Positions 4,292 to 53,998 are shown, counted from the first letter of the stretch. The stretch: DNA of 64,000 nt from a virus (IMGVR_UViG_3300007539_000009:32001-96000), one strand, 5' to 3'. Made by a program: numbers and translations. The notes: generated by a model from the sequence alone, not told the origin.

Positions 4292-4675
4292 TCAATACAG
4301 ATGGGAGTCTGACTTTGCGGCTGTATAGCCTTCTGCTACGCGCTGCTTGCCGTAGCGCTTAGCCCGACTGCGATCCTTGACTTCGTCGTGAACGTACTCT
4401 GCCTTGTGCGACGGCAGGAAGCCTTTGGCTCGCTTCTTTCTGTATCGATCGTGCTTCACCTGCACCTCACCCGGGCTGACTATACCTCTAGGGTCGTAGC
4501 CGTGCGCCACCAGCTCGCGCTCAAAGCCACGAGCCATTGTGCGGTCCTGCACCCGCTCAGAGTACGTGGTCGACTTCTTCCTACCTAAGCCAGGGAAGAT
4601 CGATCGACGCTCGGTCGTAAGCTCAGCGGCGATCTTGTAAAGCTCGTCGCAGTAAGCAGCACCGAGGTCCATCAC
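4292..4675 (-). CDS. Small basic protein with N-terminal DELxKIA tag (putative internal head protein)
   Basis: N-terminus MMDLGAAYCDELYKIAA, Arg/Lys-rich body, overlaps the tube gene stop. Confidence 0.7.
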   Translation of the reverse strand: MMDLGAAYCDELYKIAAELTTERRSIFPGLGRKKSTTYSERVQDRTMARGFERELVAHGYDPRGIVSPGEVQVKHDRYRKKRAKGFLPSHKAEYVHDEVKDRSRAKRYGKQRVAEGYTAAKSDSHLY

Positions 4676-5421
4676 GCGCCAGCTGAGTTGGTCGACAGCT
4701 GAATCGGGGCAATGCGGTCGAACTGCCCTGAGACGTTTTCAGTCATCACAACAGTCGAAGCATCGACCATCATGTTGTGTGTCTCAATATAGCAGTCCTC
4801 AAGGTACATAGCGCCGTACGGCCGGTCACGCGTGTCCTTGAACACTAGTGCCATACCGAACGGAACATTGAACAGCTCCGAGGTCAGGTTGGTGAAGAAG
4901 TCACGGTTCTGAACCTCAGTCGTTGATCCGCCCCAACCCGGTGCCACATCAAGCACTTTGTCTGGGAAGAGCTCGTTGTACGTCTCCAAGTAGGAGATCG
5001 GCTGCCCCTGCTCGTCAGGATCGATGAGCAACTCAGTACCGAACTCACCCAGTTTCTGGCCAGGGCCGATCGGAGCGAGCGCGTAGAGCAGACGCATCAA
5101 GCTCGGGCCGTAGAACAGGAAGCGCGAGACCGTGAAGTTCGCGAACATCCGTCCGGGCACCAAGTAGCTGCGCTTAGAGCCAATCTCGAACAGACGGCTG
5201 AGCTGCCTGTTCTGCGCGACCTGAATGCCTTGCAGCAGCCCAATCGGGATCAGCGAGTTGGTAGCGGTGAACCCCACTGCCGTGGGGTCGCCGGGTGTGA
5301 GCATGTCCAGACGAGCCGGACCGGCAAGCACCAGCGTCGACTCAGACGACACATACTCGCCGTTCTTGATCTCTGTCTGGACGTGCTCGTTAGTCCAGTT
5401 CCAGTTGAGGTAGCTCGTCAT
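4672..5421 (-). CDS. Tail tube protein (contractile tail)
   Basis: PIGLLQGIQVAQNRQLSRLFEIGS...VSRFLFYG...PFGMALVFKD...YLEDCYI pattern of tube proteins. Lies directly downstream of the sheath gene. Confidence 0.7.
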   Translation of the reverse strand: MTSYLNWNWTNEHVQTEIKNGEYVSSESTLVLAGPARLDMLTPGDPTAVGFTATNSLIPIGLLQGIQVAQNRQLSRLFEIGSKRSYLVPGRMFANFTVSRFLFYGPSLMRLLYALAPIGPGQKLGEFGTELLIDPDEQGQPISYLETYNELFPDKVLDVAPGWGGSTTEVQNRDFFTNLTSELFNVPFGMALVFKDTRDRPYGAMYLEDCYIETHNMMVDASTVVMTENVSGQFDRIAPIQLSTNSAGA

Positions 5422-5439
5422 TGGATGATGTTGTTTCTT

Positions 5440-5721
5440 TTAGGACTTGCGCCGGCCACGAGCCGAGCGCTGCTTGTCTCGCTCTCTTTTGTGCGCAGCA
5501 GCCGCTCCGACGCCTGAGCCAGCCACAACACCTACTGGTCCTGCGAGCGCGCCGCCAGCGAGGGAGCCGGCGAGGGAGCCGGCAGCAGACCGCCAACGAC
5601 TACCGTGCTCTGCACCGATAGCAGCGCCGATCGGCCCAAGCAGCGCTCCACCAGCACCAGCTGCTCCTGCGCCTGCAATCTTGGCCAGTTCGTCAACAAA
5701 TCCGAGAACGGTTGAGGTCAT
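5440..5721 (-). CDS. Small glycine-zipper protein with DELxKIA tag
   Basis: MTSTVLGFVDELAKIAG, then Gly/Ala zipper helices and a basic tail. TGATG coupling to the sheath gene. Confidence 0.7.
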   Translation of the reverse strand: MTSTVLGFVDELAKIAGAGAAGAGGALLGPIGAAIGAEHGSRWRSAAGSLAGSLAGGALAGPVGVVAGSGVGAAAAHKRERDKQRSARGRRKS

Positions 5722-8700
5722 CAGATGAAGATGAAGATGGTGCCTTGCGAGGCGGAGAAGAAAGGTTCGACCTGGTACTCCATGATGAAGCCGTCCGGCT
5801 GATCCGGGTCGTCTTCGATCTTGTTGAGTTTGATCGACTTGATGTGCTTCTGCTCGAGGATCGAGTTTCGCACGCCTTGCTGGATGCCTGAGAGAACGTC
5901 GTAGAAGCCCTCGTCTCGGATGTAGGTACCGAGGATCGGGCGAATCGCCGCGCGCAGCAGTCGAGCGAAGTTGTCGATCTGCGTGGTTACTGCGTCCTCG
6001 TAGAACTCCACAGCCGTGGTGTCCGTAGTCAGAGCGCGGATGGCGCTGACCGTAGCTCCTTCGCCGCCAGGCTGCTGCATGTAGTAGTTGCCGGCGTTGA
6101 TGATGACGTCCTGGTCGTCAGCGCTGCCCGAGAACGGGTCGATGATCGACTGGATACCAGAGCCGGCAACCTTCGTCAGCGGCCGTGCAGGGCCGTACTC
6201 AGCGCGCTTGGCTGCTTCGATCGCGCAGGCGTACTGCATGCCCGCCTGGTAGTCCACGACGTCCTCATTCACCGTTCCGTAGAACCCGGTGGTGTCTGTG
6301 AACGTCAGCAGGCAGCGAGACGGGAAGATGTTGCGGACACGCCGCTCACTGATCGCATCGGTGTAGGCTGCGATCGAATCACGGAACTCCGTGGTCGATA
6401 GCAGCTTTGACTTGATCGTGTAGGCCGTCACAGTCAGGTCTGTCACGCCCTTGGCAATATTCCCGTCGGGAATCATTGTCAGAGTCGTAGTAGAGCCAAC
6501 TACGTTGACGACTGTGATTCGACCGGAGAAGTCGATCAGTGTCGTGCCATCGAAGGCTGTGCCTGAGAACTCATCACCGACGATGATGTCGTCTACGGCG
6601 GTAAGGTCACGCTGGACTGTGACTGTCTGGACGCCGCCCGGATCAGTGCGGCTGATCATCGGAGCGTCACCCGACTGCAGCGAGGACTTGTCCTCCTGCG
6701 TGACGTGCCACTTCGACTGGTACAGGATCCGCTCCCGCTTGTTGACGGGCAGCGACTGTGTCAGTACATGCGTCTGAGCTGCAGACAGCACCAGGTCGTC
6801 TTGGGTCAGCGGGACGATCGAGTAGACCGCATCGCTGGCCGCTGCCGCAAAGGCCGTGTTCCAGGCTGTGACGTTGTTGTCGCCGACCTGCAGGCAGTAC
6901 ACCTCTGTGTTGGTGTTCTGCGTGGCAAGCTGCGCGGCTAGCGCCAGCGGGTTGTCCGGAACCGGATCCCCCAGAAGCGACTGGTAGGTGCTGGCCGTGA
7001 CCCGGATGAACGTGTCTGTCGACGTGTTCAAGATCTCGGCGTAGCTCAGCTTGACCGTGCCTTCGAGGCTGGCACCAGACAGTGTCTTCTCAACTGTGTA
7101 GTTGAGGGAGCTCGCTGCATCGGCGCTACCCACAAGGAGGATGTCGTCACCAAGCACATCCGGGCTTGCGGCGATGTCTACTGCCGTCTGGAAGTAGATT
7201 GCACCCTTGACCGTCTGAGTGTCCGGCACGTTGTTCGGGCTGGTCGAGAGCTGCGTAATCTCGAGCGTCGAGTCGTTAACTACGCGCTTGACCGTGAAGT
7301 CAGCCCGCAGCGGGCGACGAACGCTGAACCCGATGTCTTCGATCGTCTCGTTCGACTGGAGAACGATGCCCTTGTTCGGGTGATCTTTGACCGTAAGCTG
7401 CGTAGCGCTGTCTTGCGTGATGACCACGAACAGCAAAACACCCGCGTCGCTAAACACGAGGTCACCCGCTGCGACGCCGTCGGCGCCGAAATCAGTGGAG
7501 CCGTTAGCGGTAAGTACGCGCTCCCCGCTGACGTTCTCCGCGCCGATGTCCGCTGTGTCCCCAGTCAGGGGCGAACCCGGGTTGCAGATTACGTAGTCGA
7601 CGTTAGATGCCGACAGCGTGTCCGAGTACATCTCGCCGAACTCGCGGACGACCAGCGTGTTGTCTGTGCCCGGCGAATGCCCGGACGGGCTCGGGCTAGT
7701 CAGGTTGCCGGCATTTGTGATCTCGAACACCGGGCGATAGATACCGTCAGTGTCCTTGATGAGGATGTGGTCGCCGACCTCTACTGTGCCGGGGAAGCCG
7801 GTGATAGCGGTGTCGATGAAGTTTCGAAGACCAGCTGCGTCAGCTGCCGAGAACGAACCTGTGGTGCCGCTCGCGCCTGCGCGCGGCGCGTAGGTGTACG
7901 CGCGGAAGGCTACGCCTTCGTTCGGGTCCGCATCTACGTAGTCAGGCAGGTCGCCACTGGCAAAGTCCTGAACTATGTGCTGGTCAGTAGCCGCAGTCTC
8001 GTCAGAGACTGTGTAGAACACCGGGCGATACTCAGCGTTCTCGTTCTGCGTGAAGAAGATCGTGCCAGTGAACGCAGCGTTGTCCCAGACTGTGACGGTG
8101 GTGCCGGCAGAGGGCAACGTCACAACACGCTGGTTACTGGCAACAGCGATTGCAGGGCTGCTGAGCAGTGACCCCTCGCTCTGCCCGACCTGGTCGAACT
8201 CAAGGCCGATGCCCTGGCTTCGGATGCTCCAGTGGTCGAGGAACAGGACGTCACCTTGCTTGACGCCCGTACCCGTCGAACCGAAGCCGCCGGCTGTGTT
8301 GAATGCTGTACTGGTGCTGCGAAGCGTGCGGATGCCGTTCGCATCCTCAGGCTCGACCAGGATCTTGGCTGCCTCGACTGCGCCGATAGTGCTCGGCCCT
8401 TTGTCTAGGCGGGTGACCAACAGCTGGTCGTCACTGATCAGGCCGCCGCTGGCAACCTTGTACGTAGACACGCCGTTGACCTTGATGATGTCTCCATCAC
8501 CTACTTGGTCAATGACGAAGTCAGCCGACGAATCAGTAAAGCTGCTCTCTGTCGGCGTATCGGTATCAACGGCGAACACACCGGCGGTACCTGATGCGAT
8601 CTCGAAGGTCGCGCTGGCGCCAGCAGCAATGGAGAAGTTCGGTGTGGTTGCCGACTCATCCAGGTTGGCGAAAGACACACCAGTCGTGATCTCCGCTGTG

Positions 8701-8975
8701 CCTAGGGTCGGGTGCGTGACGAAGATCGCGGGCTGCAGCAGAGCAGGTGACGCGGTCTCGTTCTCTACAACACCACCCTGCCAGTTGGCGAAGTCAACTG
8801 CAGTCAGCGGCGTGCCGGCGTTGTAGTCGCCTGCTCCCGCGTCGATCTGGTAGTTGAGGCTGCGGTTCAGACCAATCAGCAGAACCGGCAGGTTGGTTGC
8901 CGGCGGGGTACCACTGATCGTGGTGAACTGCTGAAAGATCTTCAGTCCAGGACGAAGATTAGATGAGCTGGCCAT
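5721..8975 (-). CDS. Tail sheath protein with large inserted domains
   Basis: N-terminal RPGLKIFQQF...PVLLIG, core DNPLALAA...VYSIVPLTQD...KRER, and C-terminal IEDDPDQPDGFIMEYQVEPFFS resemble a sheath. Next to the tube gene. Confidence 0.75.
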   Translation of the reverse strand: MASSSNLRPGLKIFQQFTTISGTPPATNLPVLLIGLNRSLNYQIDAGAGDYNAGTPLTAVDFANWQGGVVENETASPALLQPAIFVTHPTLGTAEITTGVSFANLDESATTPNFSIAAGASATFEIASGTAGVFAVDTDTPTESSFTDSSADFVIDQVGDGDIIKVNGVSTYKVASGGLISDDQLLVTRLDKGPSTIGAVEAAKILVEPEDANGIRTLRSTSTAFNTAGGFGSTGTGVKQGDVLFLDHWSIRSQGIGLEFDQVGQSEGSLLSSPAIAVASNQRVVTLPSAGTTVTVWDNAAFTGTIFFTQNENAEYRPVFYTVSDETAATDQHIVQDFASGDLPDYVDADPNEGVAFRAYTYAPRAGASGTTGSFSAADAAGLRNFIDTAITGFPGTVEVGDHILIKDTDGIYRPVFEITNAGNLTSPSPSGHSPGTDNTLVVREFGEMYSDTLSASNVDYVICNPGSPLTGDTADIGAENVSGERVLTANGSTDFGADGVAAGDLVFSDAGVLLFVVITQDSATQLTVKDHPNKGIVLQSNETIEDIGFSVRRPLRADFTVKRVVNDSTLEITQLSTSPNNVPDTQTVKGAIYFQTAVDIAASPDVLGDDILLVGSADAASSLNYTVEKTLSGASLEGTVKLSYAEILNTSTDTFIRVTASTYQSLLGDPVPDNPLALAAQLATQNTNTEVYCLQVGDNNVTAWNTAFAAAASDAVYSIVPLTQDDLVLSAAQTHVLTQSLPVNKRERILYQSKWHVTQEDKSSLQSGDAPMISRTDPGGVQTVTVQRDLTAVDDIIVGDEFSGTAFDGTTLIDFSGRITVVNVVGSTTTLTMIPDGNIAKGVTDLTVTAYTIKSKLLSTTEFRDSIAAYTDAISERRVRNIFPSRCLLTFTDTTGFYGTVNEDVVDYQAGMQYACAIEAAKRAEYGPARPLTKVAGSGIQSIIDPFSGSADDQDVIINAGNYYMQQPGGEGATVSAIRALTTDTTAVEFYEDAVTTQIDNFARLLRAAIRPILGTYIRDEGFYDVLSGIQQGVRNSILEQKHIKSIKLNKIEDDPDQPDGFIMEYQVEPFFSASQGTIFIFI

Positions 8976-8981
8976 GTCAGA

Positions 8982-9788
8982 TCAGGGTGAGGTGCCGTAC
9001 CACTGGTCGAGGAGGTCTTCCGGAGACCCGTTGATGATGCTTGTAGGTGCTGCTTTCACGCACCCAAGGCCGTCTCCGGCCGGTTCCGGGTAGCCACTTC
9101 CCGACAAGTTGCTGATGCCTGCTGCTGTGGCGTACGTGGCAGTGGTTGACTTGACCCAGTTAAGGGTTTGGTGCACCACTAGCGTAATCGGCGCCACAAA
9201 CAGATCGTGCTGAGAGTCCGCACGCACAGACCGTGCTTCGCCGATGATCGGGCTGTCGATCTTGTGGATCCGAGACCCGTCTCGAATCTCCTTTTCATGG
9301 AAGCGGATGAAAGACCCCGCAAGCCACGCCAGGAGCTCGGCGTTCAGATCGTTGCGTGCGTAGCAGTTGATGCTGATGGGAACAGTCGTGTTGTCCTGGA
9401 ACTCAGCCTTTGACCGACCGGTCGTTCCGAAGACCCGCTGACCGGTAGAACCAACGGTGGTTCGGGGAACAGCGCCCCCGAACCCTTTGCCGTTGATCGC
9501 CAAGTCATTGAACGAGAACGTGCCCCGACTGAGGATGATCGCCGGGCGGCCATCTGTCTTGAACACTTCACTGCTGAACGAGTCAGCGATGACGAGCTTG
9601 CTGTCATCGCTGATCTCGTTGCTAGGTGTCAGAACAAGACGGAAGGGGTTCGGCCGCGCGGCGAACTCAGGGAACGTCTCTTGCTGAAAAACGTCTCGGA
9701 ACACCTCGAGCAGAATCCGCCGAGGGTAAGTCAGCGGATTGTGTACAGCGGGATCTGCCGTCCCGAAGCTCGGGGTTCCGTCAGCCAT
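8982..9788 (-). CDS. Putative tail completion / tail terminator protein
   Basis: Position between neck and sheath genes. RPAIILSR...ISINCYARNDLNAELLAWLAGSFI alpha/beta pattern typical of terminator-like proteins. Confidence 0.45.
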   Translation of the reverse strand: MADGTPSFGTADPAVHNPLTYPRRILLEVFRDVFQQETFPEFAARPNPFRLVLTPSNEISDDSKLVIADSFSSEVFKTDGRPAIILSRGTFSFNDLAINGKGFGGAVPRTTVGSTGQRVFGTTGRSKAEFQDNTTVPISINCYARNDLNAELLAWLAGSFIRFHEKEIRDGSRIHKIDSPIIGEARSVRADSQHDLFVAPITLVVHQTLNWVKSTTATYATAAGISNLSGSGYPEPAGDGLGCVKAAPTSIINGSPEDLLDQWYGTSP

Positions 9789-10326
9789 TCTGTCGGCGAG
9801 ACGCCAAGTACCCGATGCCGCCTGCTACGCCAAGGCCAGCAAGAACCGGATTCCGCCGGACTGCGCTCATGAGCTTGCTGCTGCCCACACCGGACCCGCC
9901 GGACCCGCCGCCGCGACCAGCGCGGACCTTATCTAGACGTGCTTGACGAGTAGCAGCGGCTGCGTCGCCTGCGGCGCGAGCAGACCCGGCGGTGCCCGGG
10001 TTTTTCATCGCGCGCTGCATGACTTCGTTGCCCCATATCGTCGGATTCTTGGCAGCGACTTTCTCAACGTACGCCTGCATGGCGTTGTCGAGCTCGGCAG
10101 CACGCTTCTCAAAGACCTCTTCGACACCTGCGAGGAATGCCGGGTGCTCGATCAGCTGGTTCAGCTGGAAATCCGTGATTGCGGCGATCTTCTCGACCTC
10201 CGGCTCGGGCTGCGGCTCCTCAACTACAGGGGCAGCCGGCTCCATCTCCGCGAAGAGCGCGGCTGTCTTCGTGTTGTGGCCCAGGATGTCACTGAGCTCA
10301 GTGATTAGCGTGTGTTCAGCGTTCAT
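9781..10326 (-). CDS. Protein with three K-x-A sites, acidic N-half and basic C-half (putative internal head protein)
   Basis: TKTAA, EKIAA and EKVAA. The C-terminal part is basic and ends in a hydrophobic helix. Confidence 0.7.
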   Translation of the reverse strand: MNAEHTLITELSDILGHNTKTAALFAEMEPAAPVVEEPQPEPEVEKIAAITDFQLNQLIEHPAFLAGVEEVFEKRAAELDNAMQAYVEKVAAKNPTIWGNEVMQRAMKNPGTAGSARAAGDAAAATRQARLDKVRAGRGGGSGGSGVGSSKLMSAVRRNPVLAGLGVAGGIGYLASRRQNG

Positions 10327-10895
10327 GATTTGCGACGAAGTCTGTTGTTCAGCCGGGACTCTTCCCAGCGACTTGCCCCTCTGTGAACAGCGTAGAGTCC
10401 TGCTCCTGACGCTGCACCTTTAGAGACGCCCCGTAAGGCAGCCTGGCCGACGGCTTTACGGCCGGCACCAGACGCGGACATAGCGCCTATAGCCGCCCCA
10501 GCCAGGGCACCGGCAGAGGCAGCATTAATTCCGGGCCGGGGATTTCCGGCTTTTCGAGCTCGGTATTGAGCGTAGCCCAGCCCAGCTCCAACACCCACAG
10601 CAGCTGACGCAGGCAAGGTCCGAGCTACTGCTTGAATCTGCTTGGCGGTCCTCAGGTTTGCAGGCGTCGTGCGGGCTACCTGCTTGGCAGTGCGGGCAGC
10701 CAAAGCCGCGTGGGCAGCACCGCTAGCAACCAAGCCCACCATGCCTGCACGCCCTCTTGGCTTAGCTGACGCTTTTGCCGCCTGAAACTCTTTGACGGCC
10801 TCCCACTCAGGGTCTAGCCGTCTGGGTTTCGTGCCTGCGGCGTCTGCGAGCTTGTCTAGCTCGTCTAGGAGATCACTGACTGACTTGCTTGTCAT
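10323..10895 (-). CDS. Basic Ala/Gly-rich protein with N-terminal DELxKLA tag
   Basis: MTSKSVSDLLDELDKLAD, amphipathic Gly/Ala helices, Arg/Lys rich. Coupled overlaps at both ends. Confidence 0.7.
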   Translation of the reverse strand: MTSKSVSDLLDELDKLADAAGTKPRRLDPEWEAVKEFQAAKASAKPRGRAGMVGLVASGAAHAALAARTAKQVARTTPANLRTAKQIQAVARTLPASAAVGVGAGLGYAQYRARKAGNPRPGINAASAGALAGAAIGAMSASGAGRKAVGQAALRGVSKGAASGAGLYAVHRGASRWEESRLNNRLRRKS

Positions 10896-14825: not shown

Positions 14826-15242
14826 TCAGGCGATCTGCAGTAGACCGTTGGCGTCGCTGAAGTCGATCGTCAGACTCTCGCCGTCACCAAGCGTGAGTGC
14901 TGAGCCGTAGTCGTACCAACCAATCAGCGGGTCCGCCGGCGACGTAGGACCGTCGTTGTAGATGACTACGTACTGGAACGGACCAGTAGACCCCCCAGAC
15001 GATGTCATCGTCAGGTCCGCCAGCGTCAGCTGATAGGTACCTGATGTCTGGGTGCTATCACTGGTGGTGATGTTGCGCGAGCTCAGGTTCGTGTATGCGA
15101 TCTGAGTGATGTTCGCCAGCACCGTGTTGGTAGCAACAGGGGCGGAGTTTGTCAGCGCAACAACTAGCTGATCAGTTGCTAGATCGTGAACACCGTGGGC
15201 GATGTCCTCAACGAACTGGTTGAACTTGTTGAACGTTGCCAT
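14826..15242 (-). CDS. Small virion structural protein
   Basis: MATFNKFNQFVEDIAHGVHDL.TD.LVVAL...GPFQYVVIYND...DPLIGWYDYG.ALTL.DGESLTIDF matches a recurrent phage virion protein family. Confidence 0.7.
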   Translation of the reverse strand: MATFNKFNQFVEDIAHGVHDLATDQLVVALTNSAPVATNTVLANITQIAYTNLSSRNITTSDSTQTSGTYQLTLADLTMTSSGGSTGPFQYVVIYNDGPTSPADPLIGWYDYGSALTLGDGESLTIDFSDANGLLQIA

Positions 15243-15778
15243 CAGTTGCTCTTCTTAGAGAATGCGCGATGCGCCATGTTCGTGGCCGCCATGCCAGCCA
15301 GACCGGCGACCACGCCGCGTGCGCCGCCTCCGATCCTACTACCTTTCCGCACCTTAGGCGTGTGCGGGTCTATGTAGCCGATCTGCTTAGTCTTAGCCAG
15401 TCGGTCCGCCACCGGGGTGTGTGTAATGGTGGCTGATGTAGGCTTACTTACCGGTGCTCCTGCCGCATGCGCATCGCTCAGGTTCATGTGGCGCCGAATG
15501 TCGGTTAGCCTGGTCTTCTGCTGGTGACTCCTTGCTGCAGATGCGACGCCAGCACGGACTTTGTTCTCTCCGTACCTGAGCGTATTGCGCGCAGCCACGA
15601 GTGCGCGGCCCGGCTTGTTGGTCCAAGCGCTCACGTTGGGGTTTGCTCGGTGGGCTGTGTAAGCAGTCCCAGCAGCAGCAGCACCGCCTAACGCAGTTGC
15701 CGCTGCTCTGCCCTTACTGCTATCGTCATCAGCAGCTAACTTGGTCAGCTCGTCGATGAATGCGTCTAGGTAGTTCAT
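15242..15778 (-). CDS. Basic protein with N-terminal DELxKLA tag
   Basis: MNYLDAFIDELTKLAA, Gly/Ala hydrophobic helices at both ends, basic middle. Confidence 0.7.
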   Translation of the reverse strand: MNYLDAFIDELTKLAADDDSSKGRAAATALGGAAAAGTAYTAHRANPNVSAWTNKPGRALVAARNTLRYGENKVRAGVASAARSHQQKTRLTDIRRHMNLSDAHAAGAPVSKPTSATITHTPVADRLAKTKQIGYIDPHTPKVRKGSRIGGGARGVVAGLAGMAATNMAHRAFSKKSN

Positions 15779-17040: not shown

Positions 17041-18321
17041 TCACTCGTTGAACGGGTTGCCCGGATCGTTGTAGAAGGTGAAGGTACCGGTCGTGTTGAG
17101 CGCGGTGCCTGCACTGTTCTGGAACAGGTTCGGCATGTCGATCGAAGCGCCCGACAGCAGGATGCTACCGATGCCCTTGATGTTGCCGAAGCCCATGCCG
17201 ACTTCTTCCCACGCCTCGAACTCGATGAAGCGACCGCGCTTGTCGATGAAGAAGCGCGTGCCCTCGAGCAGGAGGAAGCGACCGAGGAACTCGGGAGCCG
17301 GGAACGAGAACATCTGACCGGGCTGGACGATGTTCGGGTTGTCGCGGACCGTGGTGACGAAGGTGTACCCACCGACAGTGGTGTACTTGTAACCGTCACG
17401 CGTGATCTCGCTGGTGATCTCGAGGCCAGCCTCGGTATCAGACCATGCGATCGTGTCAGTCCAGTCGACCTCGTGCAGGAGGAAGACACGGCCCTTCATC
17501 TCGCGAGCGGGCTGGACCTTCATGAGGTCACGCAGCACGTTGCGGTCGAACTCCGTAGCCGTGGAGGTCAGGAAGTTCGAGAAGACCGCGTTCGCCGGGT
17601 TGTAGTTCGGGTGCGTGGCGTCGAAGTCCGCATCCCAACCGTGCGTGGCCGGAGCGCCGGCACTCGGGCTCAGGGCACCACCGTCACCGACAGCACCGGA
17701 GGTACCGGCGTTAGCGACGTTACGGGTGTAGATGTAGGAGGCGAAGGAGTACTTCGAGTTGAAGTTCTTGCCAGTCGCCTGGGCCATATCGTCACCCTCG
17801 TGGGTGACGGTCCCGCGATCGACCAGGGTGTTCATGCGACGGCGGGTCGCGAGGAACACAGCAGTCCGGACGTGATCCATGAAGATCTTGTCCTCTTGCT
17901 CCTGGATGTCCTTGACGGTGTTCTGCTCGAGAACCTTCGTCAGGGGCATGCGGTAGGAGCGAAGTTCGGACTCGCTCTTCTGGAACTTGTCGGAGCTGAT
18001 CGTGGTGAAGCGGATCTCGTACCGCTTCGCCTCGATGTAGGTCTTCGACGGCTCGCCACGCATGTTGATCTGCATGGCCAGCGAATCGGGCTCGATGTCG
18101 TCGATGTACGACAGGCCCTCATCGGTCGTGTTGCGGGTGAGCTCTGCGGTGGTGACTACCTGCGGGGGAAGCACACGACGAGCGAAGCTGTTTTCACGGA
18201 GCTTGTCCTGGATGTAGGAGCCCGTGACCTCAGCGGTCTTCTCGAGTGCGTCTCCGCCACGGTTGATCGCCTCACCGAAGAGAGAGTTGAACTCATCCGC
18301 GTTAAGCTGGAAATCGCTCAT
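17041..18321 (-). CDS. Major capsid protein (HK97-fold expected)
   Basis: 426 aa with the strongest codon bias in the window. IQDKLRENSFARRVLPPQVV...KFQKSESEL...DIQEQEDKIF pattern. Order is protease, scaffolds, cement, MCP, terminator. A single LEKTA at residues 26-30. Confidence 0.8.
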   Translation of the reverse strand: MSDFQLNADEFNSLFGEAINRGGDALEKTAEVTGSYIQDKLRENSFARRVLPPQVVTTAELTRNTTDEGLSYIDDIEPDSLAMQINMRGEPSKTYIEAKRYEIRFTTISSDKFQKSESELRSYRMPLTKVLEQNTVKDIQEQEDKIFMDHVRTAVFLATRRRMNTLVDRGTVTHEGDDMAQATGKNFNSKYSFASYIYTRNVANAGTSGAVGDGGALSPSAGAPATHGWDADFDATHPNYNPANAVFSNFLTSTATEFDRNVLRDLMKVQPAREMKGRVFLLHEVDWTDTIAWSDTEAGLEITSEITRDGYKYTTVGGYTFVTTVRDNPNIVQPGQMFSFPAPEFLGRFLLLEGTRFFIDKRGRFIEFEAWEEVGMGFGNIKGIGSILLSGASIDMPNLFQNSAGTALNTTGTFTFYNDPGNPFNE

Positions 18322-18367: not shown

Positions 18368-18898
18368 TCAGGCGAGCGCCGGAGCCGTGAACGGACGTGA
18401 GTGGAAGTCGAAGAACGCGTAACCACCCTCGACACGCGTGATGGTGCCGTAGTAGTAGTCGCCTGCGTTGTACGCCTCGGCATCGAACTTGCCGCTGGTG
18501 GCGATGAACACGCCCTGACCAACGGTCGGAAGCACGGCGTCGTTCCAGGAGCCCGCCGGGAGGCCGATCTCGAAAGCACCCGAACCCTGGATGCCGGTCA
18601 GACCGCCACCTTGGATCGAACGCGTCGGAGCGCCGGCATCAGTCGGGTCCGTCTGGCTGAACTGGATGTCCGTGCGACCGGAGTCGACGAAGTTGACCAG
18701 AACGCGGATGTCCGGGGCGGTAGCACCAGAGGCGGTACCGGTGGGAGCAGCTGCGTAGCCAGTGGAGGCAACGACGAAGGGTTCACCTTCGGCGATGTCG
18801 AACGAGCCGTCGTACTTGACGGCCTGCAGGTTGACGCTGGTGAGCTTCGCGTTGAGCGCGACCGTGCTCTGCGTCTTGCGAATTTCGCTAGTAGCCAT
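18368..18898 (-). CDS. Capsid cement/decoration protein
   Basis: 176 aa, beta-rich, directly upstream of MCP, strong codon bias. No K-x-A site. Confidence 0.55.
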   Translation of the reverse strand: MATSEIRKTQSTVALNAKLTSVNLQAVKYDGSFDIAEGEPFVVASTGYAAAPTGTASGATAPDIRVLVNFVDSGRTDIQFSQTDPTDAGAPTRSIQGGGLTGIQGSGAFEIGLPAGSWNDAVLPTVGQGVFIATSGKFDAEAYNAGDYYYGTITRVEGGYAFFDFHSRPFTAPALA

Positions 18899-38474: not shown

Positions 38475-40432
38475 ACCGGACTGTTCTCTCTGCGCGGCGG
38501 CTTCTGCTCAGGCAGCGGCTTGATGTCGTTCACCTGATCTTGGATCAGCCTCTGACGCCGCCTGATGGCAGCAGCTAGCGCCGGGTTGGTCTGCTGTAGG
38601 ACGGCAATCTCATGCTCGATCATGTTCGGCGGGATCGTTTTGAGCATGTTGTCCGACATAGTGTCGAGCATCTGAGGATCAGCCTGCCAAGACGTGTCCC
38701 CAGGCTGCTGACCTTGTTGCGGAGCGCCAGCCGCAGCGGACTGATCAGGAGCACCACTAGGTGCTCCATTAGGCGTCCCGCCTTGGTAGGGGTCTCCACC
38801 TCCAGTTTGGGCGTTCGGATCCCCTTTTGGTGCGTACTCAGCGATGTAGCCTTGCTCCCGAGCTTCGCGGATATCCGCCTCGAGTGCCTTCTGTTGGGCC
38901 ACTTGAGCCTTTGCAGCGTACTCAGCCTGGATCACGCTGGCCTGTCCTTGGACCTTGGCAGCCTGCAGCTGCTGACGCTCCATGACTGCCAAGCGCTCGA
39001 TCTCTTCCTTCTGCTTGCGCGTGTTCTCGCGCTCGAAGTCGAAGCCGAGCTCTTCGATCGTGGTCTGATCGGACAGCGTGTTCGTTTGCCGCAGCGACAG
39101 CGCGATCTGCTTCTGCTGCGCGTCGTCCGCCATCTTGAAGTCACGGTGACGCAGGTGAATCGGCGGCATGCCGCACCAGCGCGTCAAGCGCGGGATGACG
39201 AAGTCCTTGAGGAAGTTATCGAGCTGCTCAATCTTGTTCAGGAAGATGTTCTCCAGAACACGCAGCGAGATTGACGAGCCAGTCCAATTGAGTCCGCCGT
39301 ACACAAACTCCTGGGGCGTGTCCAGACCACCAGTGATCTGCTCCCGCACCATCGTCATGTCGTTGTGGACATTGAGCGCCTGCGCGTCACCACGGATGTT
39401 CAGCATCTGCGCAGGGAACGGCATGGTGTAGATACCGTTCTGATCACGACGCCACTTCTGGATGATGTTCATCATCTTGTCTGACCAGTCCCCGAGGTCC
39501 GCAGCCATGTGCGGGCTGGGGCCGCCAGCGGGTGCTGAGGGCGTGAGGACAGTCAGCGGCAAAACGTGATCAAGCGCAATCGCTTCTTGTGCCCGGCGGT
39601 ACGTCTGGAAGAGCCAAGCGTCTTTGAAGACCGGGAGAAGCGGCGGGAGCCCGAAAGCGTCGTCCTCCATAGAGACGCTCGGGTTCTTGAAGTGGTAGAT
39701 GTTGTCGGGATCTAGCTTGACGTTCTTCTTCTCCTTCGTCGCCTTGAGGATCGACATCGGAGTTTCAAGGATTAGATCGCGGTTGGAGTTGGCGTCCTGA
39801 ACACGCTTACGCAGCCACTGAGGGATGCGGTAGATGTACGTCGAGCTGTCGCTGAACGGGTTGTACCGGACGTCGATGTACTTCGGGTTCCAGCGAATGA
39901 TCTTGGTTCGCTTCCGGTTCTTGACCGGCCGATCGTAGACCTCGAAGTCTTTGTTCTGCGTCTTGCACTCAGGGCAGTGACCCTCGAATCGGTTGTCGCG
40001 GTACTTCCAGTCCTTGTGCGTCCGCGCCATGAACTTGTGCCCGCAGTGCTTACAAATCAGGTGCCGGTCGAACGGTCGGTAGATGGACGCAAAGGCGTTG
40101 CCGTAAACCTCGTTGTCCAGCAGCAGCTTGTACTCCGCCTCGCGCAGCTTGATGTTGCGCTCGAGCAGCTCACGCCACGCTCTAGTTGAGTACGAGCTCT
40201 CAGACTCGTAGATCAGCGGTGTGATGACATACGAGCACTTCTTGTTGATCGTCGGAGCGATCTCGGAGTGCGTCGTGTAGAGGTACAAGCACCACCGAAA
40301 CATCTCCTTGACGGAGTTCGGGATGTAGCTGGTGCTCGGGTCGAAGAACGGGTGAGCGTAGTTGCCTAGCCCGCGTCCTCTGCTGCCAGAGCCTGACCGG
40401 TTGCCAAGTGAGTTACTGGATTCGAGGCTCAT
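38471..40432 (-). CDS. Portal protein with zinc-ribbon insertion
   Basis: LLLDNEVYGNAF, IYHFK.P...FGLPPL, EQITGGLDTPQEFVYG, HLRHRDFKMADD segments typical of portals. CKHC...CPEC insert. Confidence 0.75.
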   Translation of the reverse strand: MSLESSNSLGNRSGSGSRGRGLGNYAHPFFDPSTSYIPNSVKEMFRWCLYLYTTHSEIAPTINKKCSYVITPLIYESESSYSTRAWRELLERNIKLREAEYKLLLDNEVYGNAFASIYRPFDRHLICKHCGHKFMARTHKDWKYRDNRFEGHCPECKTQNKDFEVYDRPVKNRKRTKIIRWNPKYIDVRYNPFSDSSTYIYRIPQWLRKRVQDANSNRDLILETPMSILKATKEKKNVKLDPDNIYHFKNPSVSMEDDAFGLPPLLPVFKDAWLFQTYRRAQEAIALDHVLPLTVLTPSAPAGGPSPHMAADLGDWSDKMMNIIQKWRRDQNGIYTMPFPAQMLNIRGDAQALNVHNDMTMVREQITGGLDTPQEFVYGGLNWTGSSISLRVLENIFLNKIEQLDNFLKDFVIPRLTRWCGMPPIHLRHRDFKMADDAQQKQIALSLRQTNTLSDQTTIEELGFDFERENTRKQKEEIERLAVMERQQLQAAKVQGQASVIQAEYAAKAQVAQQKALEADIREAREQGYIAEYAPKGDPNAQTGGGDPYQGGTPNGAPSGAPDQSAAAGAPQQGQQPGDTSWQADPQMLDTMSDNMLKTIPPNMIEHEIAVLQQTNPALAAAIRRRQRLIQDQVNDIKPLPEQKPPRRENSPV

Positions 40433-40435
40433 AGA

Positions 40436-41032
40436 TCACTTAGGCACGGCCATTTGGCCAATCTTGTTGGCTACGTACAGATCGATGTTGTAGAGGCGAT
40501 TCGACTGTACCTGAACGACATCCTCTAGATCAGGGTTGTCATTCCGCTTGGGCTGAATCGCGCGAATAAGGTCTTTGTACTCAGCGTCTGGTTCAGGCTG
40601 AGCAAAGGCAAGCATAGCTGGGTACTTGATCAGCCCGTCGCGTCGGCAGCACGCCTGCACGTACCCCTGCACTTCACGGCTGAACGTGCGCTTCTTGAGC
40701 GGCAGCAAAGCTCGAAGAGCATACTCAAGCTCCTCGACCGCGACCGGCTCGAACAAGTCAATGTCGTAAGGCAGATCGTTCATCGCCAGGCACGTGTTCT
40801 CGAACACGTGGGCATCCGTGAAGAATCGATCTGTGAGCTTGAATGCCCGAAGAGCCATGATCTTGCTCTTCACAATGTCCGAGCACTGAGCGTGGAACTC
40901 GCGCTCAATCTCGGACCACAGCGTCTCCGGCTCCCATTCCAACCAGGCGCCACCAAACTGCTTACTCAGCAGCTCTTGGTAGACGCCTGGAAGTATGTGG
41001 TGGGCGCGAAATACGCCCGCAAGCTCTTTCAT
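40436..41032 (-). CDS. Hypothetical protein
   Basis: 198-aa globular-looking ORF, tightly packed between neighbours. Confidence 0.65.
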   Translation of the reverse strand: MKELAGVFRAHHILPGVYQELLSKQFGGAWLEWEPETLWSEIEREFHAQCSDIVKSKIMALRAFKLTDRFFTDAHVFENTCLAMNDLPYDIDLFEPVAVEELEYALRALLPLKKRTFSREVQGYVQACCRRDGLIKYPAMLAFAQPEPDAEYKDLIRAIQPKRNDNPDLEDVVQVQSNRLYNIDLYVANKIGQMAVPK

Positions 41033-42051
41033 CAGCCAAAGTACTCGTCGAGGGCTTCGCGGTACGGCCCATCGAACTCAGACTTCAGATCTCGAGCAAC
41101 GCTGGCCGTCTTGACGTACGAAGTATCCCATCGCGGGAACCTGTTCTCAAGATCAACCAGGAACTGATCCTTGGTTGTCAGACCCTCCGCAGGAGCCAGC
41201 TTGTGCTGTGCCTCCATGCGCCGAAGCTCGTTGGCTGTCTTGCGCAGGTCCATACCACCGAAGCAGGCAAGGTACGGGTCGCGCATCTCCGGGCCGTATT
41301 TGGGACGAAGGCCAGCTGCACGATCGAGCGTTTCGATCTCTTGGGCGAGCTTGATGCCGTCCTGTGGGTCGTCTAGCACCGGCTGGTGGTTAGCCAGCTT
41401 GGTGTAGATGTCCGAGAACTCAGTGCCCTCTGTCAGGGTGCTTCGGTCTCTGAGCTCGCCCTCGAACCACGGGCCCAGAATCGGCTTCGGCACGTAGTCC
41501 CAGACTCGATCGTCAGTGATGGCAGCAGTTCCAGCCTGCTTGAGCAGGCCGTCCGCAAACTCACAACGATCACGCGGAGTCATCTTGGAGTAGTTGCGAA
41601 CGAACTGATCCTGCAGCACTTCGGCGACCTTCTCGAGGCTGCCAACGCACTGCTGCTCCGGGGCCTGCTCTACCACCACTTGAATGACGGTCGGGTCCGC
41701 ATCGCTCGCTGCTTCTGCCAGCTTCTGCAGTCCAGAGCTGGGCCGGAGGCCGTAGTGCTCGAACGCTGCATTGATCCGCGAAGCAGCCGTCTTCACCACA
41801 TCCTCGGGCAGCGACTCAGCGTTGCTCTCGAGATACGCTGCTGAGAAGAACGCAGCTGCGCGGGTGTGGATCGGGTATCGGCGTTGATTGACACTACCGT
41901 CAGCGATCTTCACGGCGAAGGCGCGGTCGGGAAGCGAGTCAATCTCGTGAGGGTGGGGGAGCTCCTTACCGAAGAGCTGTTGGGCGTCGATGCTGTTGAC
42001 GAACGAAGGATCGTCATACGCATCGATCACCATCCCGGCGAGTTTGAACAT
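41032..42051 (-). CDS. Head-associated protein saturated with K-x-A sites
   Basis: 11 of 17 lysines are in K-x-A (hand count). Confidence 0.75.
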   Translation of the reverse strand: MFKLAGMVIDAYDDPSFVNSIDAQQLFGKELPHPHEIDSLPDRAFAVKIADGSVNQRRYPIHTRAAAFFSAAYLESNAESLPEDVVKTAASRINAAFEHYGLRPSSGLQKLAEAASDADPTVIQVVVEQAPEQQCVGSLEKVAEVLQDQFVRNYSKMTPRDRCEFADGLLKQAGTAAITDDRVWDYVPKPILGPWFEGELRDRSTLTEGTEFSDIYTKLANHQPVLDDPQDGIKLAQEIETLDRAAGLRPKYGPEMRDPYLACFGGMDLRKTANELRRMEAQHKLAPAEGLTTKDQFLVDLENRFPRWDTSYVKTASVARDLKSEFDGPYREALDEYFG

Positions 42052-42683
42052 CAGTTCTTGGCCTCCTGGCCGTCCTTGGTCTTGGCAGCAGGCTTTTTGT
42101 CCTGCTTAGCGTCCTTGTCGTCCGCTTTGCCCTTACTCGGCTTAACCGTGGCCTTGGCCGCCGCACCAGCCACATCAGGCTTCTTACCTGACGCCTTCGG
42201 CTCAGCCTTTTCGGACTTTGCCTTATCTGCTGCTTTGGCCTCAGCCTTCGGTTCGGCCGAACCCTTAGACCCAGATGCCCGGGTCTTAACAGCCGCAGCT
42301 GCACCGGCTGTAGCCGGATTCTTAGCTTCTGCGATCTGCTGTTCGAGTTGCGTGTATTGGAGTCTGAGTTTTGCGTTCTCTACCAGCGTCTGGAGTCGCT
42401 GGTTCTCTGCCTGCACGGGATCGATCATCATCCCGGGCGGAGGCGCTGCACCGACAGCGGCGTCTGCAGGCTGCTCGGGAGCGGCAGGACCGGTTTGCGT
42501 AACCTCGTCCGGCACTGCAGGGGCCTGCTGAGCGGCAGGATCACCCTGCGGCTTGGGGGCTTTGGCTGACGGCATCTGCTGCCCAGGAAGGCTGCGCTGC
42601 TGTGTAGCGTCCCACTTGAGCTCGATGTTGGCGAGCTTAGCCAGGCCGTCTACGTAGCCGCGGTAGAGGGTTCGGACGTTCAT
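42051..42683 (-). CDS. Tagged protein with Pro/Ala linker, coiled coil and Lys/Ala-rich tail
   Basis: GYVDGLAKLAN near the N-terminus; histone-H1-like KA-rich C-terminal third. Confidence 0.7.
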   Translation of the reverse strand: MNVRTLYRGYVDGLAKLANIELKWDATQQRSLPGQQMPSAKAPKPQGDPAAQQAPAVPDEVTQTGPAAPEQPADAAVGAAPPPGMMIDPVQAENQRLQTLVENAKLRLQYTQLEQQIAEAKNPATAGAAAAVKTRASGSKGSAEPKAEAKAADKAKSEKAEPKASGKKPDVAGAAAKATVKPSKGKADDKDAKQDKKPAAKTKDGQEAKN

Positions 42684-49073: not shown

Positions 49074-49086
49074 AAATGGCTGGCTG

Positions 49087-49669: not shown

Positions 49670-49670
49670 T

Positions 49671-51125: not shown

Positions 51126-51171
51126 GTTGCTCCTTGGTTTGTAACGAACGCGGACAAACTACTCATGACAC

Positions 51172-51208
51172 AAAAGAAGCCCGCACTACCGAAGCAGTAC
51201 GGGCTCTT
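51172..51208 (-). terminator. Intrinsic terminator
   Basis: AGCCCGTACTGC-TTCG-GTAGTGCGGGCT followed by TCTTTT on the minus strand. Confidence 0.8.
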
Positions 51209-51223
51209 ATCACAGCGTGGAAG

Positions 51224-51514: not shown

Positions 51515-51545
51515 TCCGTGGTAGACCCCTGACGGTGAGACTATG

Positions 51546-51830
51546 TTAGCGCTCGCGTTGCGCTACCGAGCCCTTCTCCTTGATAGGTTCTTCTACTCGC
51601 ACGTAAGTGTCGAGCGTCTCTCGTATTGCGCGAACAGCGCAGTCTCTGGATGACGAGAGCCGGAACGCTGTGGTCTGTAGGAAGTCCTTGGGCCGACGGA
51701 TGCGGAACGTGACGGTGTAGTCCACCTCTGCCTCATCCTCGAGCGCATCGATGCCGTTGTGCTTGATGTCCAGCACTTCACCGGAGATGATCGTCACTTG
51801 ATGCGGCCGGCTAGGAGTCTCTTCAGTCAT
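51546..51830 (-). CDS. Small hypothetical protein
   Basis: TGATG coupling to the upstream gene. Confidence 0.6.
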   Translation of the reverse strand: MTEETPSRPHQVTIISGEVLDIKHNGIDALEDEAEVDYTVTFRIRRPKDFLQTTAFRLSSSRDCAVRAIRETLDTYVRVEEPIKEKGSVAQRER

Positions 51831-52753
51831 CAGTTCGTCGGGTAGAGAAGCTGGATCTCGTCACCAGCCTCGAGAAGACGCCGGTCTTGCGTGAACGTGA
51901 TAGACAACCCATCACCGGCGATCGTGTAGTCAATCCCACTGACCAGGGCCGCACCGTTCTGGAAGACCAGCATGGTGGCAGCCACCGTCACAGCGGGGTT
52001 GATGTCTATGGCTACATCCTGCCCTGAGCTCCCCAGGCCAAGCAAGCTCCCAGGCACACATCCTTCGATCTTGTTCCAAACCTGCCCGCTGACTGAAGAT
52101 GCGTCCAGCCGCTGGCCCAGGCTCTGCCCGATGTAGAGGAAGCCGGTGAACCAGAAGTCAGAGCCCTCCGGCACACCTACCTCGTACGGGTCGTCCTTGG
52201 TGAACACCAGGATGCCGGTGCTCGGATCCCACAGCGGACCAGCCGGGTGGTCAGGTAGCAGCTCACCACCGAAGCGAGGCGACGGTGTGCCGTACCACAG
52301 CTGCGCAGCGTATGTCTGACCTTGGCTGTTCTCTTGTGGGTTATCACCGTCCACCCACGAGTCCAAGAAGCCTACGCCTGGATCTTGTGTAGCAAGAGGC
52401 GGAGTAAGGACAGACGCGCCTGTGACAGCGATCCAGCCCCGGTTGTCGGGGACACTAGGGATCTGTACGAGCTTGAGCCCGCTGTTCGGCGGATCTGAAG
52501 TGTCGCCATAGCGCCGTACAAGCGAAGTCGTTCCTCCATTGATCAAAGCTGGCGCAGGGATCTCCAACTCCTCACCAACAGTTTGATACGCACTGACAGT
52601 TACGTGGCTAGGTAACGACGTGGTGCCACCAGCCGGCGCAGGATCCTCACCAGGGAAGAAAACCTCAGAGAGGTGCGCCTTGTTTAGCAGTCGTTTAACT
52701 GCCCATGACAGCCACGCCTCTTGCTGATTAGTAAACGTCGCCATCACAAGCAA
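51830..52753 (-). CDS. Tail/fibre-associated virion protein
   Basis: C-terminal LVFQNGAALVSGIDYTI.GD..SITF....EAGDEIQLLY beta-domain of a type seen in fibre proteins. Confidence 0.55.
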   Translation of the reverse strand: MLVMATFTNQQEAWLSWAVKRLLNKAHLSEVFFPGEDPAPAGGTTSLPSHVTVSAYQTVGEELEIPAPALINGGTTSLVRRYGDTSDPPNSGLKLVQIPSVPDNRGWIAVTGASVLTPPLATQDPGVGFLDSWVDGDNPQENSQGQTYAAQLWYGTPSPRFGGELLPDHPAGPLWDPSTGILVFTKDDPYEVGVPEGSDFWFTGFLYIGQSLGQRLDASSVSGQVWNKIEGCVPGSLLGLGSSGQDVAIDINPAVTVAATMLVFQNGAALVSGIDYTIAGDGLSITFTQDRRLLEAGDEIQLLYPTN

Positions 52754-52768
52754 TCAAATAGAGATAGC

Positions 52769-53998
52769 TCAGCAGTTCCACTTGTCGAGCGCAAGCTTCT
52801 TCCGCGTCGGTTTGCCGCTCTTGTCGTGCATCGGCCCCGGCATCCCGCCCATCCGTGCACAGAAGCTCTTGCGCCTCTTGTCCTCGCTTGAGCCCGGCTT
52901 GATCTTGCTCGGGTCCTTGGTAACCGCCATCTTAAGCTTGCTGCCTGGATTAGCTTCTCGATACGACTGAACACCTTTGCGGTTCAGCCCGCCCGTCTTG
53001 CTCTTGCCTTCGCTGCGAGTCCATGCAGGTGTCTCCGACGCTTGTTTCTTGAGCTTGCGCTTACGCTCTTTCGCCTCTTCGCCGCCTGCGTGGCCGTCTA
53101 TGAGCGACTTGGAGGCGTAGATGTCGGTGCGGCGTGCGGCGATCTTCTGCAGCTCGTCCTCGAAGCCACGAAGCATCGCTGTCTTGGCCACGTGCGCGTT
53201 GTCGATCCAGTTGGGGTAGGGCCGACCGTTAGCTGCAGCGCGTGCTTTTGCTCGAGACTTCTGCTCGGGCGTCAGCGTCTTGCTCTTACCTTTGGCTTCC
53301 TTCGGGTTCTTCTTGTCCCAGGGAGCCTCCTCAGCCGCTTTGAGCATCCCGCCGCCAGTGAGAGAGCCGGCAGCTCGGCTGGTGATGTTGTTGCTGCTCA
53401 ACGTGTTACGTAGGTGGTTCGGGGCACTGACTTGACCCATCATCGGCTTCGGCGGCTTGTTCATCTGCATCGACCTTATCGGCTTGAGCGAAGGCGGCTT
53501 CGGCAGCGCCTTGAGCATACTGAGAACTGCAGCTGCTTTCACCAGCCGACCGTCAGCTGCGACGCCCGGGGGTCGGGCAGTAGTGTCTTTCTTCACGCGA
53601 CTTGCGTACCTGCCTGCGGCGTAGATCAGCCCGGCAACAGCAGCACCTTTGATGGCGTTGTTGCGAGCGCTGTTGCGAATAATTTTGAGCCCAGCTTTCC
53701 CCAAGTCTTGTGCACCTTGGTTGTAGCTAGATGAGATTCGGGCGCGAGTACTAGGGGAACCGGCTAAGTACTGCGAGCGCATTGCGGGGTCAGTCTTGAT
53801 TGCCTTAGCAACAGCCCGTGACGCTCCCGACCAGCGAGCTGATTGGCCCGCTTGACGCGCCACCTTGCTGTCAAGACCTTGCAGGCCCTTGGTGATGTTG
53901 TCGGCCGCACGACGGAGACCCTTGTAGTAGCCTCTTACTGCGCCGAGGGCCGCACCGGTGATTACGACCTCGCCATATCGCTTAGCTCGATCACTCAC
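52769..53998 (-). CDS. Very basic modular protein (apparent polyprotein) ending in a DUF6321-like module
   Basis: Modules separated by VKAA, LKAA, AKTA, DELQKIA and KKQA. C-terminal AWTRSEGKSKTGGLN.KG..SY...PGS.LK...KRRKSFCARM...LDKWNC. Confidence 0.7.
   Translation of the reverse strand: MSDRAKRYGEVVITGAALGAVRGYYKGLRRAADNITKGLQGLDSKVARQAGQSARWSGASRAVAKAIKTDPAMRSQYLAGSPSTRARISSSYNQGAQDLGKAGLKIIRNSARNNAIKGAAVAGLIYAAGRYASRVKKDTTARPPGVAADGRLVKAAAVLSMLKALPKPPSLKPIRSMQMNKPPKPMMGQVSAPNHLRNTLSSNNITSRAAGSLTGGGMLKAAEEAPWDKKNPKEAKGKSKTLTPEQKSRAKARAAANGRPYPNWIDNAHVAKTAMLRGFEDELQKIAARRTDIYASKSLIDGHAGGEEAKERKRKLKKQASETPAWTRSEGKSKTGGLNRKGVQSYREANPGSKLKMAVTKDPSKIKPGSSEDKRRKSFCARMGGMPGPMHDKSGKPTRKKLALDKWNC

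Follow-up and report, generated by a model that had tools for sequence, protein, structure and literature searches.

Lys-x-Ala, a motif concentrated in the head proteins of an uncultured phage, as candidate processing code of its prohead protease

The stretch of DNA analyzed here (the window) consists of 64,000 nucleotides, bases 32001-96000 of IMGVR_UViG_3300007539_000009, which is a single contig of 183,184 bp from an uncultured phage with a G+C content of about 60%. Almost all genes between positions 4292 and 64000 of the window are encoded on the minus strand, among them a head-morphogenesis module with the genes for the large terminase, a prohead protease, and the major capsid protein (MCP). 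Several proteins from this region are rich in the tripeptide Lys-x-Ala (K-x-A). A preceding inspection of the nucleotide sequence by itself (the sequence-only reading) had proposed that K-x-A is a processing code which is read by the protease. Below, we describe the distribution of this motif, its conservation, and its candidate role in head maturation. Coordinates refer to the window unless stated otherwise.

On the minus strand, the gene order is terminase, a 388-aa (aa, amino acids) helical protein, two small open reading frames (ORFs), the protease, three acidic small proteins, one further ORF, and the MCP. This order is retained in three (L001-L003) of four metagenomic contigs (L001-L004) which code for proteases with 31-45% sequence identity. 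For the MCP, the minus-strand frame was selected because its G+C content at third codon positions (0.84) is higher than that of the overlapping plus-strand frame (0.56). Pfam and PHROGs provide names for almost none of the K-x-A-rich proteins. The genes needed for the following are listed here; scores are from the position matrix described below.

20455-21828, minus strand: prohead protease, 457 aa; PHROG match and fold model; 9 K-x-A, 3.3 expected
17041-18321, minus strand: MCP, 426 aa; PHROG 'major head protein' (E = 8e-6); 1 of 16 lysines in K-x-A
19503-20003, minus strand: acidic scaffold-like protein, 166 aa, isoelectric point (pI) 4.1; 5 K-x-A, 0.6 expected
20040-20447, minus strand: acidic protein, 135 aa, pI 4.6; sites at residues 21, 43, and 66 with scores of 4.1-6.3
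18905-19273, minus strand: acidic protein, 122 aa; 3 of 4 lysines in K-x-A; 4-5 sites in the orthologues from L001-L003
22867-24033, minus strand: predicted all-helical scaffold- or core-like protein, 388 aa, near-neutral; 10 K-x-A, 3.3 expected
26946-28628, minus strand: acidic protein, 560 aa; 13 K-x-A, 3.2 expected, all within the variable N-terminal 475 aa
41032-42051, minus strand: acidic protein, 339 aa, starting with M-F-K-L-A-G; 11 of 17 lysines in K-x-A
24095-25873, minus strand: large terminase (Pfam GpA_ATPase; PHROG terminase, E = 8e-66), internal negative control
5721-8975, minus strand: ORF of 1084 aa, negative control; no Pfam match; no site scores above 1.5

K-x-A counts were compared to a null model in which the residues of each protein are shuffled (1e5 permutations), and p values were corrected according to Benjamini-Hochberg over all 196 ORFs. 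Five minus-strand ORFs (19503-20003, 20455-21828, 22867-24033, 26946-28628, and 41032-42051; "the five ORFs") together carry 48 K-x-A where 12.2 are expected, an approximately 4-fold excess. The individual p values are 1e-5 for 41032-42051, 2e-5 for both 19503-20003 and 26946-28628, 5e-4 for 22867-24033, and 3e-3 for the protease; upon correction, q falls below 0.05 for four of these ORFs (q < 0.05) and is 0.09 for the protease. Hand counts from the sequence-only reading were reproduced, both for the proportion of lysines found in K-x-A (5 of 5 in 19503-20003, 11 of 17 in 41032-42051, 13 of 27 in 26946-28628) and for the 10 sites in 22867-24033. Its statement that the motif is strongly concentrated in about 18 ORFs is overstated with respect to raw counts, because only the five ORFs (four after correction) are individually enriched.

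A scan over every one of the 1600 residue pairs (gaps of 0-3), with no motif chosen beforehand, ranked K-x-A first for the head region, with 85 occurrences compared to 49.7 expected (p = 3e-6). In the rest of the genome it is at expectation (166 observed, 154 expected). The enrichment thus survives a composition-controlled null and is confined to the head module. The terminase has 29 lysines and no K-x-A (2.35 expected), with zero or one site in its orthologues. As had been noted before, the 1084-aa ORF, taken for the sheath in the sequence-only reading, is close to chance (4 of 25 lysines, 2.55 sites expected, p = 0.25), and the ORF at 18368-18898 is devoid of K-x-A.

The signal acts at the protein level, is directional, and is exact in its spacing. 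In the shuffle test on the five ORFs, no enrichment was obtained for A-x-K, K-A, K-x-x-A, R-x-A, K-x-S, or K-x-G. Composition and helical periodicity were considered as causes and were ruled out; an effect of helical periodicity would also raise A-x-K or K-x-x-A, and both stay flat. A motif at the DNA level was ruled out as well: in the K-x-A-rich ORFs, the pattern AARNNNGCN is distributed over the three reading frames at 48:3:1 (48 in frame), and the Lys and Ala codons at K-x-A sites are mixed, much as they are elsewhere in those ORFs.

The motifs of characterized proteases of this kind are different. T4 gp21 cuts after Glu in (L/I)-x-E, and herpesvirus assemblin cuts (V/L/I)-x-A-S between Ala and Ser, at two sites per substrate. 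For phiKZ gp175 and SPN3US gp245, an S/A/G-x-E (AXE) code has been described (PMC10052503). In the five ORFs, neither [LI]-x-E (25 observed, 18.8 expected) nor [VLI]-x-A (35 observed, 43.8 expected) is enriched, and [SAG]-x-E is at expectation (36 observed, 34.0 expected). Because Glu-ending motifs are not enriched in the very ORFs which are rich in K-x-A, the code differs from those of T4 and phiKZ, which agrees with the sequence-only reading.

The residues that flank K-x-A are also non-random. In the five ORFs, Leu, Phe, or Ile occupies position -2 (counted from Lys) at 29 of 47 sites. Acidic residues are found at positions -3 and -4, and Ser, Ala, or Glu at +3. The same preferences are absent from 160 K-x-A sites of non-head proteins. 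A position matrix was trained on 204 sites from relatives only, with the window sites excluded. It reads E-[ED]-[MLI]-E-K-[TIEQV]-A-[SEA], with 1.3-2.3 bits for M/L/I at position -2. When scored with this matrix, the sites of the five ORFs have a mean of 1.87 compared to -2.11 for other K-x-A (Mann-Whitney p = 3e-9). The partial motif [LIMFV]-x-K-x-A occurs 35 times in the five ORFs, with 3.1 expected. The sequences thus suggest a full motif of roughly [DE]-[DE]-[LMIF]-x-K-[TIVLEQ]-A-[SAEG].

High-scoring sites (score >3) are found in 16 ORFs between 9781 and 53998, compared to three single sites in the other approximately 120 kb. An N-terminal [LIMFV]-x-K-x-A is present in 13 of the 43 ORFs from the virion block compared to 4 of 153 elsewhere (Fisher p = 7e-7). 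With the extended motif, the proposed number of about 18 ORFs is therefore roughly recovered (16 ORFs by score, 13 by N-terminal tag).

The assignment of ORF 20455-21828 as prohead protease held up. In an AlphaFold2 (AF2) model built on 52 homologues, the protein consists of an N-terminal propeptide, a core (residues approximately 40-246), and a helical C-terminal domain of about 170 aa (residues 285-457). The core has pLDDT values (predicted local distance difference test) above 90, and residues 1-18, 28-34, and 247-281 are disordered. VIA-align superposes the core best on T4 gp21 (5JBL; Z 9.9, root-mean-square deviation 2.8 Å, 137 of 166 residues). This is followed by six herpesvirus proteases with Z 5.3-7.1, from varicella-zoster virus (VZV), pseudorabies virus (PRV), herpes simplex virus (HSV), human cytomegalovirus (HCMV), Kaposi's sarcoma-associated herpesvirus (KSHV), and Epstein-Barr virus (EBV). 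Foldseek places the three 5JBL chains on ranks 1-3 (probability 0.85-0.96). As modeled, the catalytic core thus has the fold of T4 gp21 and herpesvirus assemblin. Among homologues, neither H131 nor S182 (in P-W-S-M-G) varies, and the conservation of H208 is at least 90%; the three residues follow the order His-Ser-His. From this conservation, S182 and H131 are candidates for the nucleophile and the general base, and H208 is a candidate for the third catalytic residue.

At the sequence level, PHROG 18299 ('head maturation protease') matches residues 131-247, albeit weakly (E = 1.6e-5), and among the tblastn matches are genes of Gordonia phage Pupper and Rhodococcus phage E3 which carry the annotation capsid maturation protease or prohead protease. 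In IMG/VR, a pattern scan with the protease gave no match. The core also contains an invariant cluster, C192-x2-C195 ... C206-x-H208 (21205-21255 of the window), which is also found in Arash gp222, phage G gp19, and mycobacteriophage Colt gp87. The cluster resembles a metal-binding site.

Two of the protease sites and the single MCP site are placed where processing would be expected from the models and alignments.

21727-21735, minus strand: protease K32-I-A34, context F-D-K-I-A-S, candidate site for N-terminal autoprocessing
21070-21078, minus strand: protease K251-V-A253, context I-R-K-V-A-S, candidate cut which would free the core from the helical domain
18232-18240, minus strand: MCP K28-T-A30, context D-A-L-E-K-T-A-E-V, candidate propeptide cut

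The first of these is K-x-A in 84 of 85 full-length homologues, with an invariant Lys, and lies inside the disordered segment 28-34. The second, for which 84 of 85 homologues also have K-x-A, is the one that comes first within the disordered linker 247-281. The other protease sites are in the C-terminal domain, and their positions drift between homologues. In the MCP, a single K-x-A had been reported (L-E-K-T-A, residues 26-30), and this was confirmed; with 8.1, it has the highest matrix score outside of the scaffold proteins. In the corresponding alignment column, three contigs (L001, L003, and L004) have K-x-A and the fourth, L002, has K-T-G; the conserved block G-x-Y-I-Q-D-K-L-R-E comes after the site. 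The MCPs of Salmonella phage Arash and Vibrio phage D69 have L-[VT]-K-E-A-G, which is then followed by a similar conserved Q-K-L-R-E block. The location of sites at the MCP N-terminus and in predicted disordered linkers of the protease supports the proposed processing code.

If K-x-A is a cleavage motif, the cut may be placed after Ala (P3 Lys, P1 Ala, P1' Ser/Ala/Glu/Gly) or after Lys (P3 hydrophobic, P1 Lys, P2' Ala). The HK97 capsid protein is cut after a lysine upon maturation, and the hydrophobic residue at -2, so common in the five ORFs and in the matrix from relatives, would correspond to the hydrophobic P3 of T4 and herpesvirus sites; [LMI]-x-K with a cut after Lys thus fits that grammar, too. 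Three features argue for a cut after Ala. The near-invariant pair is Lys and Ala, and in the T4, phiKZ, and herpesvirus sites the fixed pair is P3 and P1. The only natural substitution seen in a conserved site replaces Ala by Gly (in the MCP of L002), which is typical of a small S1 pocket. Finally, the residue after Ala is preferentially Ser, as it is at P1' of assemblin. By analogy with these systems, the cut is probably after Ala, and we regard recognition of K-x-A with a cut after Lys as rather unlikely.

The proteins with many sites form a first class of candidate substrates, which on sequence grounds comprises acidic multi-site proteins together with the near-neutral 388-aa protein and the C-terminal half of the protease. 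In the 166-aa protein (19503-20003), lysines occur only in K-x-A; the sites are spaced by 24-36 residues and score 4.7-9.5. Its orthologues from L001-L004 are also enriched, with some of the sites shifted. The 388-aa family (48 sequences) has 489 K-x-A where 175 are expected, and 39 of its 48 members have p < 0.01. Conserved sites are at residues 30, 59, 135, 185, and 328, and sites are spread over 104 alignment columns. Its AF2 model (pLDDT 77) consists of long helices, and Foldseek found no PDB match.

In the 560-aa protein (26946-28628), the final site (K474) directly precedes a conserved C-terminal domain of about 85 aa, which is the best-conserved part of the family. The N-terminal part is indel-rich, with K-x-A at the edges of variable blocks. 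Orthologues carry 11-15 sites each, some at retained and many at shifted positions. A word-based homologue search detected few relatives. In BLASTP, the annotated portal of phage G was not matched, and the similarity to Arash gp218, which is annotated only as structural protein, was weak and N-terminal (E = 0.001). The protein is a candidate portal, scaffold, or cargo carrier. For the 339-aa protein (41032-42051), all six family members are enriched, and the five homologues have 9-12 sites each. All six start with M(..)F-K-[LI]-A-[GA], which places K-x-A at residues 3-5. Here, Met1 provides the hydrophobic residue at position -2, and a shorter leader of this kind is not possible.

In the protease, 560-aa, 388-aa, and 339-aa families, sites turn over at constant density, with few positions conserved and many shifted. 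This points to a short linear motif which is selected for number and spacing rather than to a structural element. It bears on the possibility that K-x-A is not cut at all and serves either in docking or capsid targeting (to the prohead interior, the scaffold, or the protease) or as a structural helix motif of head-core proteins. Many sites of the 388-aa model are indeed in predicted helices, the N-terminal tags described below look like targeting sequences, and the M-F-K-L-A start of the 339-aa family would be an odd position for a cut. However, docking leaves unexplained the invariant sites in both disordered linkers around the protease core, the 24-36-residue spacing in a protein which has lysines only in the motif, and the fast positional turnover at constant density, whereas a helix motif would have raised A-x-K or K-x-x-A. 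We consider a function of this type improbable.

The enrichment also recurs in related phages. A homologue search with the protease yielded 323 relatives, and the first 100 of those listed have 746 K-x-A compared to 292 expected. On L001-L004, enrichment is found in the corresponding ORFs, namely those for the protease and for the 570-aa, 385-aa, and scaffold-like proteins, and the terminase and most of the MCP lack it. The head module has no blastn match among cultured phages. In the head modules of two of these cultured phages, Salmonella phage Arash and Bacillus phage G, K-x-A nevertheless ranks first of all residue pairs, and in the cultured Vibrio phage D69 it is strongly enriched. When the complete Arash genome was counted, 41 sites fell into the head module (21.8 expected) and 206 outside of it (238.5 expected); the phage G protease has 8 (2.5 expected). 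In mycobacteriophage Colt (cluster C), the protease domain is fused into a protein of 1240 aa, and K-x-A enrichment is weak (15 observed, 7.2 expected). Since K-x-A is not the top pair there, the code appears to fade at this distance.

Arash and Vibrio D69 share a second feature, a ThiF/E1-like gene close to the right genome end (OQ632216.1, 176809-177291, minus strand; OZ195729.1, 173999-174484, minus strand). Together with the invariant Lys at conserved protease sites, this would suit a role of that Lys as modification acceptor, for example in conjugation by an E1/E2/ubiquitin-like protein (Ubl) system, similar to the SUMO motif psi-K-x-E. A ThiF match was found neither in phage G nor in mycobacteriophage Colt. 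Because phage G has K-x-A as the top pair of its head module without a ThiF match, the enrichment tracks the protease family and not E1. In addition, modification leaves the invariant Ala, the Ala-to-Gly exchange, and the placement in propeptide and linkers unexplained, and we thus give it hardly any credence.

We infer that K-x-A is the recognition and cleavage motif of the phage's own prohead serine protease (20455-21828), probably with a cut after Ala, and assign a probability of roughly three in four to this. By analogy with other prohead proteases, the enzyme would enter the prohead via its helical C-terminal domain. It would then free its own catalytic core by cuts at K32-I-A34 and K251-V-A253, trim about 30 residues off the capsid protein, and chop the acidic scaffold and core proteins into short peptides (19503-20003, 20040-20447, 18905-19273, 22867-24033, 26946-28628, and 41032-42051). 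From small basic proteins which resemble the T4 internal proteins, it would take off N-terminal tags of 15-18 residues.

Several points weigh against this interpretation. The hydrophobic position -2 would equally suit a cut after Lys, as outlined above. Most sites of the 388-aa model are inside helices and not in loops, and a cut at the conserved start of the 339-aa family would take off only five residues. ORFs with a single site provide weak evidence when taken one by one. The protease has no Pfam family at E <= 0.01, and its family profile matched no PDB sequence. The paper on the virion proteome of Arash and its supplements contain no peptide-level data (PMC10585845).

The small basic proteins (pI 9.5-11.5) form a second class of candidate substrates, recognized by one high-scoring site with Lys at residues 13-16 in an N-terminal leader.

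4292-4675, minus strand: small basic protein, pI 9.7; tag C-D-E-L-Y-K-I-A at residues 9-16
10323-10895, minus strand: small basic protein, pI 11.5; tag L-D-E-L-D-K-L-A at residues 10-17, score 4.3
15242-15778, minus strand: small basic protein, pI 10.8; its only K-x-A is in the tag I-D-E-L-T-K-L-A at residues 8-15, score 6.4
30435-30887, minus strand: small basic protein, pI 10.0; tag L-A-Q-L-E-K-L-A at residues 8-15 and a further site at K55, scores 4.7 and 4.9
42051-42683, minus strand: basic protein, 210 aa, pI 9.5; tag D-G-L-A-K-L-A at residues 12-18, score 3.2

These leaders raise the tentative idea, which we regard as possible but rather doubtful, that K-x-A is a loading tag and a cut site at the same time. 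A leader of 13-18 residues which ends in [DE]-[DE]-L-x-K-[LI]-A would suffice to bring an otherwise unrelated protein into the prohead and would then be removed, by a protease which retains the ancestral Ala-Ser chemistry of assemblin and reads Lys at P3. In that case, one could predict from sequence the complete packaged proteome of a large and mostly uncultured phage clade, and the leader could be used as a portable capsid-packaging tag.

The T4 maturation program covers gp23, gp24, gp22, gp67, gp68, and the internal proteins IPI-III, which have capsid-targeting leaders; its protease gp21 belongs to MEROPS S77, in clan SH. T4 gp21 with its substrates is the closest known system, with the same fold and overall logic and a different code. 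The predicted core fold is shared, the protease gene is located among scaffold and capsid genes, and two fixed motif residues enclose a free one. There are also many candidate substrates, which by their sequences include a capsid protein with a short propeptide, multi-site acidic scaffolds, basic proteins with leaders, and the protease itself with sites that flank its core. Unlike in T4, K-x-A is enriched and [LI]-x-E is not, and the window protease differs from gp21 by its length of 457 aa, its helical C-terminal domain of about 170 aa, its invariant Cys/His cluster, and the lack of a Pfam match.

Herpesvirus assemblin provides the second-best structural match and the same His, Ser, His order. 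If the register is K-x-A followed by Ser, P1 Ala and the preference for Ser at P1' are shared as well. Unlike in assemblin, P3 is Lys and not hydrophobic, [VLI]-x-A is not enriched, and there are dozens of sites instead of two per substrate. For phiKZ and SPN3US, many cleaved head and ejection proteins, repeated motifs in propeptides, and self-cleavage of the protease have been described (PMC10052503). A head program of a large phage with many motif-bearing proteins and repeated motif copies is thus shared with these phages, but their motif ends in Glu. We found no sequence similarity between the window protease and phiKZ gp175 or SPN3US gp245.

We found no report of a K-x-A prohead motif in the literature, and the prohead motifs of large phages that we found described are exclusively Glu-ending (PMC10052503). 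If the interpretation is correct, Lys-x-Ala is a new specificity class within the gp21/assemblin fold, for which the described gp21-type codes that we found (T4, phiKZ, SPN3US) end in Glu, and it possibly provides a bridge to the Ala-Ser rule of the herpesviruses. The clade with this motif encompasses hundreds of metagenomic relatives, Arash, Vibrio D69, and, more distantly, phage G. Because the motif is short, strongly enriched, and widely conserved, the sequence alone could suffice to predict head proteins, their trimming points, and small basic proteins which are probably co-packaged with the DNA.

A few further ORFs carry the motif. Two of them are located in the window, and for both the evidence is weak when taken alone. 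Four ORFs outside of the window start with an [LIMFV]-x-K-x-A leader (genome positions 138033-139555 and 157570-158819; listed as genome position minus 32000) and may represent further packaged proteins which are encoded away from the head module.

9781-10326, minus strand: protein of 181 aa; 4 K-x-A, 1.4 expected, p = 0.03; sites 46 and 74 score 4.9 and 4.3
22160-22870, minus strand: protein of 236 aa; one site, K48, score 5.5
106033-106263: ORF with leader, outside of the window
107277-107555: ORF with leader, outside of the window
125570-126544: ORF with leader, outside of the window
126541-126819: ORF with leader, outside of the window

A very basic protein of 409 aa (52769-53998, minus strand; pI 10.7, 49 lysines) has a C-terminal DUF6321 domain. 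Its 10 K-x-A are not significant (7.0 expected), and two of them score well. The ORF at 38471-40432 (minus strand, 653 aa), which has no Pfam or PHROG match, contains two C-x-x-C pairs (C-K-H-C ... C-P-E-C) at approximately residues 126-157, which resemble a zinc ribbon.

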